A DNA stretch of 54,578 nt from assembly GCA_041744275.1 (NCBI GenBank), contig JBGTLD010000025.1, positions 1 to 54,578 of the forward strand, given 5' to 3'. Shown here in pieces: positions 1-9,411 of the stretch (position 1 is its first letter; each line of letters begins with the position of its first letter). The notes beneath the pieces were generated by a model. That model ran no database searches, was not told the DNA's origin, and saw only the letters and a list, made by a program, of their open reading frames with translations. The translations under genes and the position numbers were made by a program. Source of the DNA: Candidatus Saccharimonadales bacterium (GTDB taxonomy: Bacteria > Patescibacteriota > Saccharimonadia > Saccharimonadales > JBGTLD01).

Positions 1-113
1 TAAGTCTGCGAAATTGTTATCAAGATTTTCATTATTGTTAGCTTCCATGCATTCATAATATATGAAAACTCACTGTTATATCACTGTAATCTGCAAAAGA
101 GGGTTACAAAACT

Positions 114-311
114 TTAATCAAATAGTCCAGCAAGTATCTTACGCAAGTACTCAATGTGTTCAGGCGATTTGTCTGCCTTGGTGCCAGCAGCACCTCGTAA
201 GTTCGCTATCATCTTTTCTGCTGCCGAAGTAGTTGGCGGCTGTATGTGCGACATATCAGGCATTCGTCTGCGCATCATTTCTAAAAGGATAAGTGTTCTT
301 AGGTCTTCCAT
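114..311 (-). CDS. hypothetical small protein (65 aa)
   Basis: ORF only, with no recognisable motif. Divergent from the 453.. operon. Confidence 0.3.
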   Translation of the reverse strand: MEDLRTLILLEMMRRRMPDMSHIQPPTTSAAEKMIANLRGAAGTKADKSPEHIEYLRKILAGLFD

Positions 312-452
312 ATACTAAGTATAAGACGAGTCATATCTGCCCGTATAGGGCTAGTACAGGCGGTTTAAGCTGGTTTTCAGAGCTATTCACAGCAATTGGC
401 GATGCCCCTATTAACCTGTTAAAATAACAGATGATGCGGTGACCGAGAATAG

Positions 453-1484
453 GTGGTAGCTTGCAAAGCTACATACGGCAGGTTAATGTCTGCCTCGCAT
501 CTCCAAATTATTATGACAGCACAAGAATACATACAGACTAAACTTGATGACCTGAAACAGTCCGCAGGTGTTGAAAAGCCAGCCAGTGATGAGCAGCTTG
601 CAGAGGCTATTTTTAAGGCATTTACGTCAAAGAAGTTCCGCAAATATAGCTTAGGGCAAGAACACGCTAACCATATAAAGTCTTCAATAGCCCTAAACAT
701 TAAGAACAAAGAGCCTATTAAAGCCACTCTTGTTTTTGGTGGCTACAAGTTATGGCGACTTGAAGAAACGCCCGAAGTGGATTGGGCGGAATTATTTTCA
801 CTTATCTACTACACCAACTGGATGAAACCTGTGTGCGAATTGTATGAGCCTGGTGTTTGGTTTGATTTCTTCTCTGATGACGTTATCGTTGCCAAGATGA
901 ATAATGTATCACCAGATGACACAAAAGCCTACCAAGAGAGCTTCAAAAAGCTCCTCGCTTTTATAAAGCCATATCAACCAAGTAATTTGAATATGACACT
1001 CAATCGTGTGGGCGACCAATATGATAGTTATGCGGACTTTGAAAAAGACCTAGACGAACAAATTAAAGCTAAGGCAGCTAGTATTGAAGGCGGTCTTCCT
1101 GTGCTTGACGATATTGCAAAAGCAACTCTAGAACTAAATGTAAGAACTACTCCAGAACAAGAAGCTGACCCGCAATGGCGTGAGAAAGTTCAGCTTATGC
1201 ACGACGGTTACGCACAAGTTACTGGCAGGCGACCATATTACCGACAACCCGACAAACTAAACATTATGACCACACCTTTTAACGGAATGTTATCCGTAGG
1301 TACGACTAAAGACAGCATTATGAAGTTTTGGATTGGCGTAGGTATCCTAAGACCAAAAGAAGACAGCTACAGACAGATTGTTATGTCACCCAACCAACTA
1401 GAACAAGCAAGATTTGATGTTGAAGATGTACATTTAAGCGGCTTAGATGGTAAGAACTTTAAAAAAGTTAGGGTTCTGAAATGA
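453..1484 (+). CDS. hypothetical protein, first gene of the SMODS/SLATT operon
   Basis: 343-aa ORF; the start is uncertain (in-frame ATGs at 486 and 513). Its stop overlaps the next start (ATGA at 1481-1484). No firm family. The segment EPIKATLVFGGYKLW..PEVDWAELF..YEPGVWFDFFSDD..VSPDD..Y loosely recalls the DIT1/PvcA-type layout; this comes from memory and is unverified. Confidence 0.6.
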   Translation: MVACKATYGRLMSASHLQIIMTAQEYIQTKLDDLKQSAGVEKPASDEQLAEAIFKAFTSKKFRKYSLGQEHANHIKSSIALNIKNKEPIKATLVFGGYKLWRLEETPEVDWAELFSLIYYTNWMKPVCELYEPGVWFDFFSDDVIVAKMNNVSPDDTKAYQESFKKLLAFIKPYQPSNLNMTLNRVGDQYDSYADFEKDLDEQIKAKAASIEGGLPVLDDIAKATLELNVRTTPEQEADPQWREKVQLMHDGYAQVTGRRPYYRQPDKLNIMTTPFNGMLSVGTTKDSIMKFWIGVGILRPKEDSYRQIVMSPNQLEQARFDVEDVHLSGLDGKNFKKVRVLK

Positions 1485-2149
1485 AGCTTGTTTTATGCTC
1501 CGAAGGCTTTCATACATCTAACACAGTTGAGGCGTGTGTAAAATTAGTCGGTAAACCAAAAGACGAAATATCCATAGGAATTATCAACGAAGCTTTTGCA
1601 GTTGAAGTAGGCGATAAACGCTGGGTGCTAGACAACTTAAACTCGGTTGCTAGTAATTTTAGCGGTGAAATAGATATTGTTGATTTACTCGCACTTTCGT
1701 TGAATGAGGTTGAAGAACGTTTGGCTGACAAAGATGTAATTTTCGTGGTTGGTGGAGACACGGATTACCTAATGAGTGTCTACCAAAAGACTGGTTTTGA
1801 TAAGTTGCTACCTAAACTACTTGAAACAAAGGTCTACGTTGGTAGCAGCGCTGGTTCAATGGTTGTCGGTAAGCGTATTTCTGCTGCTGCGTACAGGCTT
1901 ATCTATGGCGAGGATAGCAAATGGAACATAAATGAGTATGTTGGGCTGGTTGACCTTTCAGTAATGCCACATCTTGACTCGCCACACTTCCCCAATCGCA
2001 AGGAAAGTTTACTAGAGGCAGTTGGTAGCTTTGAGGGCAAAGTCTATGGTCTTCGTGATGATAGTGCTGTAGTTATAGATGACGATAACATTCATACAAT
2101 TGGAAGCGAACCGATTTTTATTGAAAAAGGTAAAATAGTAAGTGGGTGA
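1481..2149 (+). CDS. peptidase S51-like (dipeptidase E / class I glutamine amidotransferase-like fold)
   Basis: VVGGDTDYLM followed by VYVGSSAGSMVVG (nucleophile-elbow Ser) and a downstream His (PHLDSPH). The 222-aa length is typical of S51. Confidence 0.65.
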   Translation: MKLVLCSEGFHTSNTVEACVKLVGKPKDEISIGIINEAFAVEVGDKRWVLDNLNSVASNFSGEIDIVDLLALSLNEVEERLADKDVIFVVGGDTDYLMSVYQKTGFDKLLPKLLETKVYVGSSAGSMVVGKRISAAAYRLIYGEDSKWNINEYVGLVDLSVMPHLDSPHFPNRKESLLEAVGSFEGKVYGLRDDSAVVIDDDNIHTIGSEPIFIEKGKIVSG

Positions 2150-2729
2150 CTTAAAGCAACATATTCTTGAAGTTTCCCCAAAAGTCGGCAATGTCCGTTT
2201 TATTGCTGTTGACGGACACGGTGGTTCTGGCAAATCAACATTGGCTGAAATACTCTCTAAACAACTAAATGCAGAGGTTATACATACAGACGATTTCGCA
2301 GGATGGGATAATCCCGAAAACTGGTGGCCGTTAGTGATTGAGCGAGTATTTGAACCTATTAAGAGAGGGTCTTCTACACTTAGCTACCCACGTTCAAAAT
2401 GGTGGGAAACACATAATCCCAATCCAGTCGTTAATCAGCCTGTTACTGACATAATGATTTTAGAAGGCGTAAGCTCACTGCGCAAAGAGTTTAGGAGCTA
2501 TCTATCACTGGGTGTATTTGTTGATGCGCCTAAAGAGATTTGCTTACAGCGTGGTTTTGAGCGAGATAAGGGTCAGGACGGTAAGTCTGATGATGAAATT
2601 AAGCAGATGTGGCAGCAGTGGTATGAAAAAGAAGAAGTGTATATCACCAGAGATAATCCTAAAGAGGCTGCTGACCTTGTTGTGGACGGTACTGTACCTT
2701 ATGAGGAACAACTGCAAGGAACCAGTTAA
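2142..2729 (+). CDS. P-loop nucleoside/nucleotide kinase-like protein (uridine kinase-like)
   Basis: Walker A VDGHGGSGKSTLAE, then HTDDF and ILEGV segments. A GTG start lies inside the end of the previous gene. Confidence 0.6.
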   Translation: MGDLKQHILEVSPKVGNVRFIAVDGHGGSGKSTLAEILSKQLNAEVIHTDDFAGWDNPENWWPLVIERVFEPIKRGSSTLSYPRSKWWETHNPNPVVNQPVTDIMILEGVSSLRKEFRSYLSLGVFVDAPKEICLQRGFERDKGQDGKSDDEIKQMWQQWYEKEEVYITRDNPKEAADLVVDGTVPYEEQLQGTS

Positions 2730-3614
2730 ATGACTGCCGTTACGACAAAGTTCAAGACATTCTGTAACGACATACTGATTTCTCCTGGAACTAAGAGTAA
2801 TGTATCTTATCGCTATAAACGCATAACTAAGCAGCTTAATGCAGATTTTTGGGGTTCAACTTCTGACACCGACCACAGCTTGTACGTTGGTTCTTACGGT
2901 AGAGATACGGCGATTCACGTTAGCGATATAGATATGCTTATGAAGCTGCCAGTTTCCTATTACCACGATTACGATAAGTATCAGGGCAACGGTCAGTCAG
3001 CACTCCTACAAGCGGTTAGAACTTCACTGCAAAAGACTTATAGCACTACACACCTTAAAGGCGATGGGCAGGTTGTTGTAGTTGCATTTGATGATGGGAT
3101 TAAGTTTGAAATACTTCCTTGTTTCCTCAACAAAGACAATCAAAGTTATACATATCCCGATACACACAACGGCGGCCAGTGGAAAGTTACAAACCCACGT
3201 CCTGAAATTAAAGCCATAAAAGACGCAAACGAAATATGGAACTACAATCTGAAACGGCTATGTAGAATGGCGAGAGCGTGGAAAGACCATTGGAGTGTAC
3301 CTATTGGTGGCTTGCTGATTGACACGTTAGCCTATAACTTTCTTTCACAATGGAGTAATCGGGATAAGACATACGAGTACTACGATTGGATGATGAGGGA
3401 CTTCTTTTTATACCTACATAACCAAAGCTCAACCCAGCAATACTGGCTAGCAATGGGGAGCGGACATCACGTATACCGTGAAGGTAACTTTGAATACAAG
3501 GCTCTAAGATGTTATAACATATCATTAGAAGCAATTACTTTTGAGTCAAATGGGCATAGCTGGTCAGCAAGTCAGAAGTGGAAAGAGATTTTTGGAACAA
3601 AGTTTAGTGGATAA
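2730..3614 (+). CDS. SMODS / CD-NTase-like nucleotidyltransferase
   Basis: Pol-beta NTase active-site pattern YVGSYGRDTAIHVSDIDMLMKLP (GS...DxD), plus a downstream acidic strand VVVAFDDGIKFEILP. The ATG directly abuts the previous TAA (TAAATG). Confidence 0.7.
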   Translation: MTAVTTKFKTFCNDILISPGTKSNVSYRYKRITKQLNADFWGSTSDTDHSLYVGSYGRDTAIHVSDIDMLMKLPVSYYHDYDKYQGNGQSALLQAVRTSLQKTYSTTHLKGDGQVVVVAFDDGIKFEILPCFLNKDNQSYTYPDTHNGGQWKVTNPRPEIKAIKDANEIWNYNLKRLCRMARAWKDHWSVPIGGLLIDTLAYNFLSQWSNRDKTYEYYDWMMRDFFLYLHNQSSTQQYWLAMGSGHHVYREGNFEYKALRCYNISLEAITFESNGHSWSASQKWKEIFGTKFSG

Positions 3615-3615
3615 A

Positions 3616-4188
3616 ATGGATTTAATTAACCTATCAGTAGTAAGACAATCTTTTGCGCAAACTGTATTTACACACCAAGTACAGGAGATAGCTGCTGCCA
3701 ATAAGCGTAAAAAGGTATTTTGGATTAAGTTATCTAATGTCCTGATTGTCAGCCTTGTACTGATATTGCTTGGCATACAGTCCCAAAGCCCTGATAATCC
3801 TATCTACTCTTACTTGGGTGCAGGTTTAACTGTAGCGGAGATAATCTTCCTAATCATTCAGCTTAATTTTGACTTTGAAGGTCAATCACTTCTACATAAA
3901 AATGCTGCACTAAAGTATATGGGCTTACGTGATAGGTACAGACTCTTGATAGCCGACATTATGAACAGCCAAGCACCAAAGAAAGAAATTATTGCTAGAC
4001 GTGATAGCTTGCAGAATGAATACCAGTCCATTTCAGACCTCTCACCAAATACGGGTAAAAAAGAATACGATGCAGCGCAAGTAGCTTTGAACAAAAAAGG
4101 ACTCGTAAAAAGCGAGCAGTTCACTTGGTCAGATAAAGAAATAGACCACTTTCTCCCAGAAGAGCTTCGTTTAACTCGTAAAAAGTAA
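3616..4188 (+). CDS. SLATT-like two-transmembrane effector protein
   Basis: The ATG lies 1 nt after the SMODS stop. Two hydrophobic helices (VFWIKLSNVLIVSLVLILLGI; YLGAGLTVAEIIFLIIQL) are followed by a helical tail (ALKYMGLRDRYRLLIADI..). This architecture and the adjacency to SMODS match the SLATT families. Confidence 0.6.
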   Translation: MDLINLSVVRQSFAQTVFTHQVQEIAAANKRKKVFWIKLSNVLIVSLVLILLGIQSQSPDNPIYSYLGAGLTVAEIIFLIIQLNFDFEGQSLLHKNAALKYMGLRDRYRLLIADIMNSQAPKKEIIARRDSLQNEYQSISDLSPNTGKKEYDAAQVALNKKGLVKSEQFTWSDKEIDHFLPEELRLTRKK

Positions 4189-4391
4189 ATAATTGCTACC
4201 GCAATAGCCCATAAGCCTATTTGATGTATGAGTTAGAGCTAGACTACGCTGTCTGTTTATATCAGTAGATTATAGTTTCAGGCTCTAGTGTACGTGTATC
4301 TAAGTTAGGCACTTTAGATAAGCTGTCAGGTTTGTCCCAGATTTCATACAAAAGTTTAAGGAAAGTATCTATACTTGCACCAAAAAGAGAT

Positions 4392-4419
4392 CCCCACCAT
4401 GTGTGGGGTTTTCTTTTTG
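4392..4419. terminator. bidirectional intrinsic terminator candidate
   Basis: Hairpin CCCCAC-catgt-GTGGGG flanked by an A-run upstream and TTTTCTTTTT downstream. It lies between convergent genes. Confidence 0.5.
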
Positions 4420-4528
4420 GTCTGATGTGCCTCAAATCTCTGCCTAAAAAGGCTAGGGTGAGAAATGCCAGCGGTTCCGCCGGCTGACGGATCGCAAGGA
4501 AACAAACTCTTGAAAACTTGTTTTCAAA

Positions 4529-4580
4529 GATGTTTTTTCGGGCACGTGGAACGTGAGGGGAACCCCACACCCGACCAAAC
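4529..4580 (+). repeat. intergenic repeat family A, copy 1 (about 52 nt)
   Basis: GATGTTTTTTCGGGCACGTGGAACGTGAGGGGAACCCCACACCCGACCAAAC. The second copy is at 6520-6570. It contains a short GC hairpin (GTGAGGGG..CCCCACAC). Confidence 0.7.
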
Positions 4581-4595
4581 TAATTTCTTGTTTTA

Positions 4596-4868
4596 CTAGA
4601 GTAAATCAGCTTCGGCTGCGTCTAGTTCGGTTATATCAAGCTCGTCTACATTGATATCGTTTAGATTGTCTTCTGATGTTTGTAGGTCGTCAGCATTGTT
4701 AATTTCTTCTTGCTGAGAAGTTTCTGGTACTGTTTGGTTTGGATCACTTTTGTTATCTTGTTTGTTTAACACATAGAACCCCGCAAAGCCGATAACCCCT
4801 ATTACTACTAACACTAGCAATACTTCTACAATACTAAATCCAAATTGGTTGTTTCTTTGACGATTCAT
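4596..4868 (-). CDS. type IV pilin-like protein (prepilin N-terminal cleavage/methylation motif) with acidic tail
   Basis: N-terminus NQFG|FSIVEVLLVLVVIGVIGF carries G-F-S-x-x-E followed by a hydrophobic helix. It is coupled to the upstream gene by TAATG. Confidence 0.7.
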   Translation of the reverse strand: MNRQRNNQFGFSIVEVLLVLVVIGVIGFAGFYVLNKQDNKSDPNQTVPETSQQEEINNADDLQTSEDNLNDINVDELDITELDAAEADLL

Positions 4869-5557
4869 TAGTTTGCTCCTTCGGTTTCGGTAGGCGTAGT
4901 TTCAGCTTCAGGCTCTGTTGTCTCGTCCGAGTCGTTACTGGTATCTTCTGACTCATCATCGTTTTGTTGAGGAGCTTCTGCTTTTAATGAGCTAATAAGG
5001 TCAACAAGAGTTGAACGATATGCTTTAAGCGATTCTTTTGCCGCTTGTGCGCTATCACGGTAAGTTGCAACCGTTCCAGCCACGTCAGGATTCTCACAGT
5101 CTACTTCTACGTTGAGTTCGCTAAGCACTGAAGCTTCCAGCGTAGCTGCTGCTTGCGCTTCTGCCACTTCTGCATTTAGCTCATCATAATTGTCGACAGT
5201 CAGCTGACCCTTATCGTAGAATTTCTGCACTCGTTCATAAATCTTATCGAATGTTCCAACATGTTTTGTTGCTTGTGCTGAAATACGAGACATTGCAGAT
5301 GTGATTTTGGCTTGTCGTTTCTCGCAAGCTGCCATGCGAGCTTCTGTTGATTTTACTTGTGCCGTTTCACGCTTTTCCGCAATCATTTCTTTCGTAGCCG
5401 ATTTACGTTCTTCGATACGCTCTGTTACTTCTGCGGGTCGGCCACGCTGTCTATCTTCTTGTTGAGCATTGACAACTCCTGGCAAAAACAATCCTAGTGA
5501 TAAAATCACTCCTGTCATTATTGCTAGCGAGCTTTGTATTCGTGTGTATTTTGTCAT
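4868..5557 (-). CDS. secreted coiled-coil protein, hypothetical
   Basis: Signal-peptide-like N-terminus (..LSLGLFLPGVVNAQQ), an Ala/Glu/Lys-rich helical body and an acidic Thr/Glu tail. Confidence 0.6.
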   Translation of the reverse strand: MTKYTRIQSSLAIMTGVILSLGLFLPGVVNAQQEDRQRGRPAEVTERIEERKSATKEMIAEKRETAQVKSTEARMAACEKRQAKITSAMSRISAQATKHVGTFDKIYERVQKFYDKGQLTVDNYDELNAEVAEAQAAATLEASVLSELNVEVDCENPDVAGTVATYRDSAQAAKESLKAYRSTLVDLISSLKAEAPQQNDDESEDTSNDSDETTEPEAETTPTETEGAN

Positions 5558-5637: not shown

Positions 5638-6324
5638 ATGCATATGCAACAAAATCAAAAAGGATTCGCTCATATATTCATAGTTTTAATTGTAGCAGTT
5701 GTTGGGGTTACAGTTTTTGCAGGGTATAGAATCTATAATAAAAATACTTCAACAACTGAAAGCCCAAGTTCTAGCTTTTCTGCTGAAGAATCTACTACTG
5801 ACGAGCACGAAGAGATGAATGACGAAGAAACTGCTATGGCTACAGAAGATGAATCTAGTGCACCAGATATTAACCAAACTTCTCCATCGACACCTACTAC
5901 TGAGAGTACCAATTCTGCCCCTATCCAAAATACTAATACTAATACTAATACTAATACTAATACAGGTTCAGGCCCGACAGAATCTATCAGTCAGCCACCT
6001 CCAAGTTCAGGTAGCACTCCAACGAGTACAGTAAATAAGAAATCCTTCACCATAGACTCCTTTAGTTTTGGTTATTCTCTAAGCAGTATAAATGTAAGCC
6101 CTGGCGATGAAGTAACACTAAAATTGACTAATAGCGGTGGAAAGCATGATTGGGTTGTTAATGAGATAAGCGGCGCTAGAACTAGTATCATTAGCGGCGG
6201 ACAAACCGATACTATTACTTTTATAGTACCTCAAAGCGCAGCAGGAAAGACTTACAAGTTTTATTGCAGTGTCGGAAATCATAGAGCGCAAGGAATGGAA
6301 GGCAACTTAGTCATTTCTTCGTAA
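5638..6324 (+). CDS. membrane-anchored type-1 (blue) copper protein, cupredoxin domain
   Basis: N-terminal anchor KGFAHIFIVLIVAVVGV (pilin-like, but without Glu5). A Ser/Thr/Pro/Asn low-complexity linker follows. The C-terminal cupredoxin carries ligands H (GGKHDW) and C-x4-H-x4-M (YCSVGNHRAQGM). Confidence 0.75.
   Translation: MHMQQNQKGFAHIFIVLIVAVVGVTVFAGYRIYNKNTSTTESPSSSFSAEESTTDEHEEMNDEETAMATEDESSAPDINQTSPSTPTTESTNSAPIQNTNTNTNTNTNTGSGPTESISQPPPSSGSTPTSTVNKKSFTIDSFSFGYSLSSINVSPGDEVTLKLTNSGGKHDWVVNEISGARTSIISGGQTDTITFIVPQSAAGKTYKFYCSVGNHRAQGMEGNLVISS
5929..5964 (+). repeat. hexanucleotide microsatellite (AATACT)x about 6 inside a CDS
   Basis: AATACT is repeated 5 times perfectly, followed by AATACA. 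It encodes (NT)n in the linker of the cupredoxin protein. Confidence 0.9.
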
Positions 6325-8830: not shown

Positions 8831-9274
8831 ATGGAAAAAGATACTGGGCGATTGCCCCGACCTATTAATGCCGCAATAGAGCAGGTGCAGCGAATCGGTA
8901 GCTCTGTTATGCGTACCATTGCTACACGTGAACTGGCAGAACACTTAATGGAGAGAGATGAAAATCAGCTTATAACTCGAGCTCACGCCAATAGGGAAGT
9001 GGCTGTGCAGTTGGATAATCATGATGTTGTACTACATCAGACAAGAATAATTGCGTTCATCCAGGCTTCAAGTCTTGATCGGCGATTACAGTCAGAAGAT
9101 TCATTGATAGGAGACGAAAAGTTCATGATGTTCCTGGAGACCATGAATGAGTTGCCAGCTGGCGAACGGAATTTTAAATCACTTGGACTTGATGATGATC
9201 AAATAGAGCGCATGAGTATATATCCCATACTTAACCAGTGGTTCATAAAAGGTGATTATGACCCTATTGATTAG
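8831..9274 (+). CDS. hypothetical protein (147 aa)
   Basis: ORF with a GAGGAG RBS 6 nt upstream. No motif recognised. Confidence 0.5.
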   Translation: MEKDTGRLPRPINAAIEQVQRIGSSVMRTIATRELAEHLMERDENQLITRAHANREVAVQLDNHDVVLHQTRIIAFIQASSLDRRLQSEDSLIGDEKFMMFLETMNELPAGERNFKSLGLDDDQIERMSIYPILNQWFIKGDYDPID

Positions 9275-9337: not shown

Positions 9338-9411
9338 GGCGCCTTGGCCGAGAAGTTAGGCAGCAGTCTGCAAAACTGCGTAGACGGGAGCGTTACCCGT
9401 AGGTGCCTCCA
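9338..9411 (+). tRNA. tRNA-Cys(GCA) with non-canonical T-loop, CCA encoded
   Basis: Hand fold: acceptor GGCGCCT/AGGTGCC (one G-U pair), U8, A14 and a 3-4 bp D-stem. Anticodon stem GCAGT/ACTGC with loop CUGCAAA. T-stem ACGGG/CCCGU. Discriminator U73 followed by CCA. The T-loop is AGCGUUA instead of UUCRANY, and the D-loop lacks GG. Confidence 0.6.

Follow-up and report, generated by a model that had tools for sequence, protein, structure and literature searches.

Among the cyclic oligonucleotide-based antiphage signalling systems (CBASS), type I operons mostly consist of clade D, E or F enzymes with effectors of two or four transmembrane segments, and operons formed by a cGAS/DncV-like nucleotidyltransferase (CD-NTase) and a SLATT protein, such as EcCdnF04-SLATT6, are reported to restrict phages at least 10,000-fold in Escherichia coli (bioRxiv 10.1101/2023.05.21.541620). 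A gene pair of this kind is located at positions 2730-4188 of the DNA analysed here, a stretch of 54,578 nucleotides from a Candidatus Saccharimonadales bacterium (contig JBGTLD010000025.1; hereafter the window). The putative signal synthase (gene 4) and effector (gene 5) are the last of five consecutive open reading frames (ORFs) on the plus strand (Table 1), and an earlier note, made from the sequence alone, had described them as closing a tightly coupled five-gene string, whose upstream members could serve as new accessory proteins. Domain identities, intact catalytic residues, purifying selection and the absence of conserved synteny, all computed here, make it very likely that the pair is a self-contained two-gene type I CBASS, to which the resident genes 1-3 are unrelated. 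A type I CBASS (CD-NTase and SLATT_4) that is intact and strongly conserved by purifying selection is thereby documented in a Saccharibacteria-like genome; no paper joining CBASS with Patescibacteria or Saccharibacteria was found among the top results of a literature search.

Comparison of the gene 4 product with family models showed a match to Pfam SMODS (PF18144; 183.3 bits against a cutoff of 26.5, E-value 5e-54) and an end-to-end match to a PADLOC cyclase model (PDLC00786; E-value 2e-136, residues 3-293 of 294). Its score against the NCBIfam model CBASS_cyclase_b (106.5 bits) is under the equivalog cutoff of 200, which places it outside that exact subfamily. The motif YVGSYGRDTAIHVSDIDML (GS...DxD) is present, and residues G54, S55, D66, D68 and D122 are invariant in an alignment of 27 homologous sequences, in agreement with the pol-beta nucleotidyltransferase signature and third acidic residue pointed out previously. 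A single-sequence search of the Protein Data Bank (PDB) returned no match for gene 4 and a profile was needed; that of the 27 homologs matched the CdnD protein of Pseudomonas aeruginosa (PaCdnD, PDB accession no. 6p8u) over its full length (E-value 2.5e-16), with D66 and D68 aligning with D62 and D64 of its DID motif. The AlphaFold2 (AF2) model of gene 4 (predicted local distance difference test score, pLDDT, 88.4) has a bilobed cGAS/DncV-like fold with a nucleotidyltransferase core and a C-terminal helical lobe. Its best Foldseek match was again PaCdnD (6p82; template modelling (TM) score 0.78), and while 69 PDB matches had an E-value of 0.001 or less, all of the 50 top matches listed are CD-NTases. 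The assignment of gene 4 as a SMODS nucleotidyltransferase, already proposed in the earlier note, is therefore borne out by Pfam, PADLOC, the PaCdnD profile match and the fold. Homologs of gene 4 number 6824, and an exact-sequence database look-up of the protein found no record. Just two partial cyclase matches were obtained in a phage collection, both in Listeria phages, so nothing suggests a prophage origin.

Gene 5 had been described as a SLATT-like protein with two transmembrane helices, and this was confirmed by matches to Pfam SLATT_4 (PF18186; 96.7 bits, cutoff 27, E-value 1.5e-27), NCBIfam SLATT_4 (107.9 bits, cutoff 55) and the PADLOC two-transmembrane effector model PDLC00696 (E-value 1.5e-34, residues 6-188 of 190). 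Hydropathy analysis showed two hydrophobic segments, at approximately residues 34-54 and 63-85. A single-sequence search of the PDB detected no solved structure for this protein. The closest relative of the pair is found in locus L056 of the comparison set, whose cyclase is 97% identical to gene 4 at the amino acid level. Between these two cyclases, substitutions per synonymous site (dS) amount to 0.81 and those per non-synonymous site (dN) to 0.017, giving a dN/dS ratio of 0.02; in the SLATT genes, 128 of 132 comparable residues are conserved at a dS of approximately 0.8, with four positions differing. Both the low ratio and the few differences indicate, at the level of sequence, that the pair is under strong purifying selection.

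The effector gene starts 1 nucleotide (nt) past the stop codon of the cyclase gene, and the adjacency of the two is kept in the comparison loci L005, L006 and L056-L061 as well as on plasmids. Accessory genes of type II (the Cap2 E1/E2 and Cap3 JAB proteins), type III (HORMA and TRIP13) and type IV (QueC/TGT/OGG-like) CBASS gave no match among genes 1-3, examined with Pfam, PADLOC and NCBIfam, nor among the small ORF upstream and the six ORFs downstream to position 9274, examined with Pfam and PADLOC. This agrees with the earlier statement that the upstream genes are not known CBASS accessories. By analogy with established CBASS, from which we infer trigger, nucleotide product and membrane killing, a phage infection cue would activate the CD-NTase, which would then make a cyclic di- or trinucleotide from nucleoside triphosphates. 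This signal would activate the two-transmembrane SLATT_4 protein, whose disruption of the membrane would abort the infection.

Synteny was examined from the side of the cyclase as well as from that of each upstream gene. Genes 1, 2 and 3 are present in none of the 17 cyclase loci and plasmids compared. In the closest of these (L056; L057, 79% identical; L058-60, 75%; L061, 73%) the cyclase is accompanied by a SLATT_4 gene and preceded by unrelated genes. Nine species-representative genomes were likewise without genes 1-3 near the cyclase (0/9); their cyclases include those of Sulfurimonas (64% identity), Sphingobacteriaceae (59%), Limnohabitans (59%) and Aquimarina (approximately 40%), and a recognisable SLATT gene follows the cyclase in only two of the nine (L005 and L006). 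The cyclase and SLATT genes travel together as a unit of two, which is spread over several phyla and is also plasmid-borne. Other genes were also seen beside cyclases of the comparison set. A Peptidase_M78 gene and an HTH_3/HTH_31 gene are located right after the SLATT gene in the 73%-identical CBASS locus (L061, 8441-9435, minus strand), an arrangement that we take to resemble the CapP/CapH regulator pair, and a weak Abi_alpha-like gene precedes the cyclase in L057 (1257-1967, plus strand). Neither the Peptidase_M78/HTH pair nor the Abi_alpha-like gene is present in the window.

Homologs of gene 1 were identified at 92% (L004), 80% (L003), 76% (L001/L002) and 55% (L067/L068) identity, in six loci that represent four distinct arrangements, and genes 2-5 are found within 6-8 kb in none of the four; the 92%-identical ortholog is followed by a gene for a 1066-residue helicase. 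For gene 2, a Peptidase_S51 (S51) family protein, homologs of 41-93% identity were recovered from 42 metagenome loci, with gene 1, SMODS and SLATT absent from all of them (0/42). The neighbours of its approximately 90%-identical orthologs (L014-L054 and L066) are mostly contig-specific, few contigs sharing one, and include genes for SDR, cupin, SET, NUDIX, DUF5680, P-loop kinase, serine hydrolase, cytidine deaminase, Ham1 and EEP proteins, several of which overlap the S51 gene by 4 nt. It seems, from sequence, that small enzyme genes are shuffled cassette-like in these genomes, ATGA overlaps included. Genes 2 and 3 occur together in L066, the kinase of which is 83% identical to gene 3 at the amino acid level; its S51 and kinase genes have an identical 8-nt overlap and 85% nucleotide identity over window positions 1480-2713; this locus is without CBASS and has a NAD_binding_2 dehydrogenase gene before the two genes and an AAA_15/AAA_21 ATPase gene after them. 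Kinases at the remaining gene 2 loci are limited to four distant paralogs (25-33%) in other positions. Other loci of the kinase have it after a peptide deformylase gene or before a thymidylate-kinase-like gene, and the cyclase and SLATT genes are absent from all four distinct arrangements (five loci) of gene 3 homologs. The ATPase gene of L066 (4022-4855, plus strand; OLD/ABC-like) holds the position that the CBASS pair has in the window and is of a type common in defence systems, which suggests that variable defence cargo is accommodated in the position downstream of the kinase. Genes 1, 2 and 3 are each widespread in Saccharibacteria, in company that shifts from locus to locus. Taken as a whole, the string consists of three modules placed side by side, the first being gene 1 and its leader, the second genes 2-3 and the third genes 4-5.

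The ORF listing and direct reading of the sequence upheld the five-ORF string, its positions and all four of its junctions (at 1481, 2142, 2727 and 3612) as first described. Genes 1 and 2 overlap by an ATGA (1481-1484); gene 3 starts with GTG at 2142, so that its first 8 nt overlap the end of gene 2 (stop codon 2147-2149); the TAA of gene 3 (2727-2729) abuts the ATG of gene 4 (2730); and the TAA of gene 4 (3612-3614) is separated by a single A from the ATG of gene 5 (3616). The place of the pair at the end of a tightly coupled string had been considered unusual, but such coupling is not exceptional: of the 39 pairs of neighbouring ORFs that share a strand in the window (maximal-ORF starts), 16 overlap or are separated by at most 5 nt. 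Edge-to-edge packing with overlapping junctions is routine in the genome of the window and its relatives; the window (41.5% GC) is characterised by dense same-strand gene packing and encodes N_methyl pilin-like proteins. The sole Shine-Dalgarno-like sequence for gene 4 (AAGGA, 2716-2720) is within gene 3. As the cyclase start also abuts the kinase stop, transcription of the CBASS pair probably reads through from upstream or begins at a promoter within gene 3. Such read-through is a consequence of compaction and not a sign of shared function.

Table 1. Features of the CBASS locus and its surroundings in the window
Feature	Position (nt)	Strand	Evidence
Small divergent ORF, 65 aa, MPDMSHIxPPT; context marker outside CBASS	114-311	-	
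Sigma-70-like promoter match, TTGGCG-18-TAAAAT with TG	396-425	+	Consensus scan, upstream of gene 1
Conserved structured 5' leader of gene 1, candidate cis-regulatory RNA	434-502	+	5-locus comparison
Gene 1, resident Saccharibacteria protein with PvcA/IsnA (isonitrile synthase)-like fold	513-1484	+	AF2, Foldseek
Gene 2, Peptidase_S51 family protein (GSSAGS), resident gene	1481-2149	+	Pfam PF03575
Gene 3, P-loop PRK/uridine-kinase-family protein, resident gene	2142-2729	+	Pfam PF00485
Gene 4, CD-NTase (SMODS), type I CBASS signal synthase	2730-3614	+	Pfam, PADLOC, fold
Gene 5, SLATT_4 two-transmembrane effector of CBASS	3616-4188	+	Pfam, NCBIfam, PADLOC
Bidirectional intrinsic terminator hairpin, 19-nt arms, A-tract and T-tract	4379-4421	both	

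Comparison of the window with L056 showed that nucleotide homology (88.6%) begins at position 2728, essentially at the cyclase start. The cyclase of L056 is immediately preceded by an intergenic stretch of approximately 137 nt and by a small ORF in divergent orientation, which together correspond to window positions 230-370, that is, to the small ORF and the intergenic DNA before gene 1. In this relative, then, the same CBASS pair adjoins an anchor of the same kind, and genes 1-3 are missing. Homologs of the small ORF (41-65 residues) share the motif MPDMSH(I/V/L)KPPT..A..(K)MI.NL and were identified in L056 (6-131, minus strand), L004 (946-1131, minus strand) and L062 (5239-5382, plus strand), where their neighbours are CBASS, gene 1 with the 1066-residue helicase gene, and a type III-like restriction-modification system, respectively. 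No Pfam or PADLOC match was found for the small ORF, which may encode a small regulator or serve as the marker of a hotspot of recombination. The intergenic motif AAGACGAGTCATAT occurs as a single copy in the window and its exact form is absent from the comparison loci, the L056 copy differing by one base.

Several other explanations of the locus were considered. That all five genes form one conflict system, in which the PvcA-like, S51 and kinase proteins sense infection or make, modify or degrade the signal, is highly improbable. The genes do share a strand, have overlapping or abutting junctions and are without a notable internal terminator; the kinase is from a nucleoside/nucleotide kinase family; weak PADLOC matches to its P-loop were obtained (e.g. 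VakA, E-value 1e-6 over 30 residues); and some homolog loci are near defence-like genes (the AAA_15/AAA_21 ATPase gene of L066 and restriction-modification genes in L062). However, the synteny of the upstream genes with the pair in other genomes, set beforehand as the test of this proposal, was found in no locus examined in any direction, co-occurrence amounting to 0 of approximately 65 loci, and even the 97%-identical cyclase sits without genes 1-3. These genes moreover have no full-length PADLOC match, each is widespread in Saccharibacteria and has hundreds to a thousand homologs, and tight junctions are generic here; the five-gene proposal of the earlier note is thus already largely refuted by synteny. 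Some points do weigh against a self-contained pair. Many of the loci compared are short contigs. The four successive junctions of 1 nt or less leave no space for a dedicated CBASS promoter, from which we infer that the five genes are probably one transcript here, and lineage-specific functional cross-talk is conceivable. Nor does composition point to recent transfer: for GC, GC3 and skew, all five genes, genes 4-5 included, are within the range of the window, which neither supports nor opposes a mosaic origin. A lineage-specific variant, in which the CBASS, after loss of a promoter of its own, has become part of a resident operon and is expressed through the gene 1 promoter and leader, with the kinase perhaps tuning the nucleotide pool, is very unlikely; if true, such a promoter-less CBASS would be a metabolically gated one in an ultra-small epibiont.

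The pair could also be a decayed or non-defensive remnant that is carried along, with a nucleotidyltransferase of another role or an inactive effector. No promoter region is private to the pair, and for so small a genome the cost of an abortive-infection system might be high. This explanation is hardly probable, however, as both ORFs are intact and full length against family models, the catalytic residues are invariant and both genes are strongly conserved relative to L056 (cyclase dN/dS and SLATT residues as given above). The history of the site is a separate matter. It is possible, if on balance doubtful, that the pair is the old resident and that genes 1-3 either entered the site, separating the small ORF from the CBASS, or were lost from the relative, the site being a recombination hotspot for variable cargo. 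The three arrangements in which small ORF homologs occur (L056, L004 and L062) speak for such events, and insertion or deletion at one orthologous hotspot is plausible, but the small ORF is perhaps a multi-copy family, so that the sites need not be orthologous, and L004 and L056 are short contigs only. This account is a refinement compatible with a two-gene CBASS and no functional competitor to it.

Gene 1 most likely starts at ATG 513 (323 residues, MTAQEYIQ...), as most of its homologs start there, and not at GTG 453, which would give the 343-residue protein first proposed. Its homologs number 1024 and the named sources are Saccharibacteria/Patescibacteria; together, the named homologs of genes 1 and 3 are from Candidatus Saccharibacteria, Saccharimonadales and Patescibacteria metagenome-assembled genomes. 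No significant family match was found for gene 1 in Pfam, where DIT1_PvcA scored 16.7 bits, under its cutoff of 26.4, and a profile search of the PDB reached PIsnA with an E-value of 9e-4 over only approximately 115 residues. The AF2 model (pLDDT 88.6) had as its best Foldseek matches PIsnA (9dhm) and PvcA (3e59), with TM scores of approximately 0.6, E-values of 1e-11 to 1e-8 and 16% identity, followed further off by the cores of class I aminoacyl-tRNA synthetases (TyrRS-like). On the basis of this model, the fold of gene 1 appears to be related to that of isonitrile synthases, which does not imply enzymatic equivalence.

The leader of gene 1 (approximately 70 nt) is near-invariant across five loci, in which the proteins are 55-92% identical; its copies are at approximately 1213-1290 in L004, approximately 6922-7000 in L003 and L001, and 5919-5995 in L067. 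Conservation upstream of position 513 is due to a conserved RNA leader and not to coding sequence. In the predicted fold a closing stem (GAUGCG/CGCAUC) encloses two hairpins and a short helix of 3 bp, and compensatory changes were observed in 4 of the 22 predicted pairs. Searches of Rfam (gathering thresholds for the whole window; E-value of 1 or less for positions 1-4900) gave no match to the leader, which is considered a candidate riboswitch-like cis-regulatory RNA outside the CBASS. The promoter-like sequence upstream of it (Table 1) was found in a scan in which the number of such matches across the region is not above shuffled expectation.

The earlier descriptions of gene 2 as S51 peptidase-like and of gene 3 as P-loop kinase-like were both confirmed. 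Gene 2 scored 94.1 bits against Pfam PF03575 (cutoff 23.9) and is under the NCBIfam equivalog cutoffs for cyanophycinase and PepE. Gene 3 matched Pfam PRK (PF00485; 47.7 bits, cutoff 22), possesses the P-loop GHGGSGKST and is under all NCBIfam equivalog cutoffs; its 590 homologs are often annotated as uridine kinase in Saccharibacteria. PADLOC matches of gene 3 (VakA, PDC-M51B, PifA and others) were rejected as generic, being confined to approximately 30 residues of the P-loop, and nothing beyond such P-loop-only matches was obtained with PADLOC for genes 1-3. The C-terminal 'QGTS' of gene 3 was considered as a scar of a kinase/cyclase fusion and rejected, since the C-termini of homologs vary in length and some have a similar ending (e.g. 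...QLQGAD).

The five genes are followed by a 407-nt non-coding spacer (4189-4595), which had been noted as approximately 400 nt of non-coding repeat and terminator DNA. Its non-coding nature and terminator were confirmed and a direct repeat family was not: the repeats are inverted only, save one two-copy 11-nt direct match at chance level. The hairpin in this spacer (Table 1) terminates both the plus-strand gene string and the convergent minus-strand genes, and it is the first convincing terminator for the string, none of note being internal to it. Long-range inverted repeats (4401-4429 and 4561-4579) close a predicted plus-strand structure of approximately 180 nt within 4395-4590 (minimum free energy -67.5 kcal/mol, z-score -3.3), with none of 200 shuffled sequences as stable. 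No Rfam family was found in the spacer in the searches described above, and the structure has no Rfam match and no homolog among the comparison loci. A short type IV pilin-like protein with an N_methyl motif is encoded convergently to the CBASS (4596-4868, minus strand), and a gene nearby (5638-6324, plus strand) encodes a membrane-anchored cupredoxin of the plastocyanin/azurin type, the long linker of which is of low complexity and rich in S/T/N/P. ARAGORN identified a tRNA-Cys(GCA) at 9338-9411 (plus strand), which is below the Rfam gathering threshold for tRNA, while tRNA-Leu(TAA) and tRNA-Ala(GGC) in the window were found by ARAGORN and Rfam alike.

These results call for caution, as ATGA-type overlaps and operon-like strings in compact Patescibacteria genomes join unrelated, freely reshuffled genes, and translational coupling alone is a poor basis for functional linkage when defence accessories are proposed. 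The leader RNA with its PvcA/IsnA-fold gene and the cassette-like shuffling of small enzyme genes are judged more interesting than the CBASS itself, and the leader RNA before this gene and the MPDMSHxxPPT protein beside variable cargo may merit a study of their own.

Of the solved structures, that closest to gene 4 by profile and by fold is the CdnD of P. aeruginosa ATCC27853 (6p82, 6p8j and 6p8u), which belongs to a type III CBASS; its identity to gene 4 is only approximately 21%, too low to settle clade membership, and it works with HORMA and TRIP13 proteins, whereas no such genes were found around gene 4. On plasmids of Microcystis aeruginosa NIES-2481 (p1) and Enterococcus faecium (pF39_1), a cyclase 54-58% identical to gene 4 is followed by an overlapping gene annotated as SLATT; these pairs are flanked by transposase, recombinase, JAB-domain, methylase or helicase genes, with no S51, kinase or PvcA-like gene. 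A close likeness is also seen to the E. coli operons EcCdnF04-SLATT6 and EcCdnF05-SLATT6 (bioRxiv 10.1101/2023.05.21.541620), in which a cyclase gene is likewise followed by an adjacent gene for a two-transmembrane effector of the SLATT family, and which, like the pair of the window, are without Cap2/Cap3, HORMA/TRIP13 or another signature accessory. The effector of the window belongs to the SLATT_4 subfamily, whereas those of the tested E. coli operons are SLATT6. Its host is Saccharibacteria-like (Patescibacteria), and the pair directly adjoins the resident kinase gene, with no intergenic region to itself. What is mildly new is confined to the lineage of the host and to the private intergenic region, which has been lost altogether; in each defining feature open to testing, the pair conforms to a type I CBASS with a SLATT/two-transmembrane effector.

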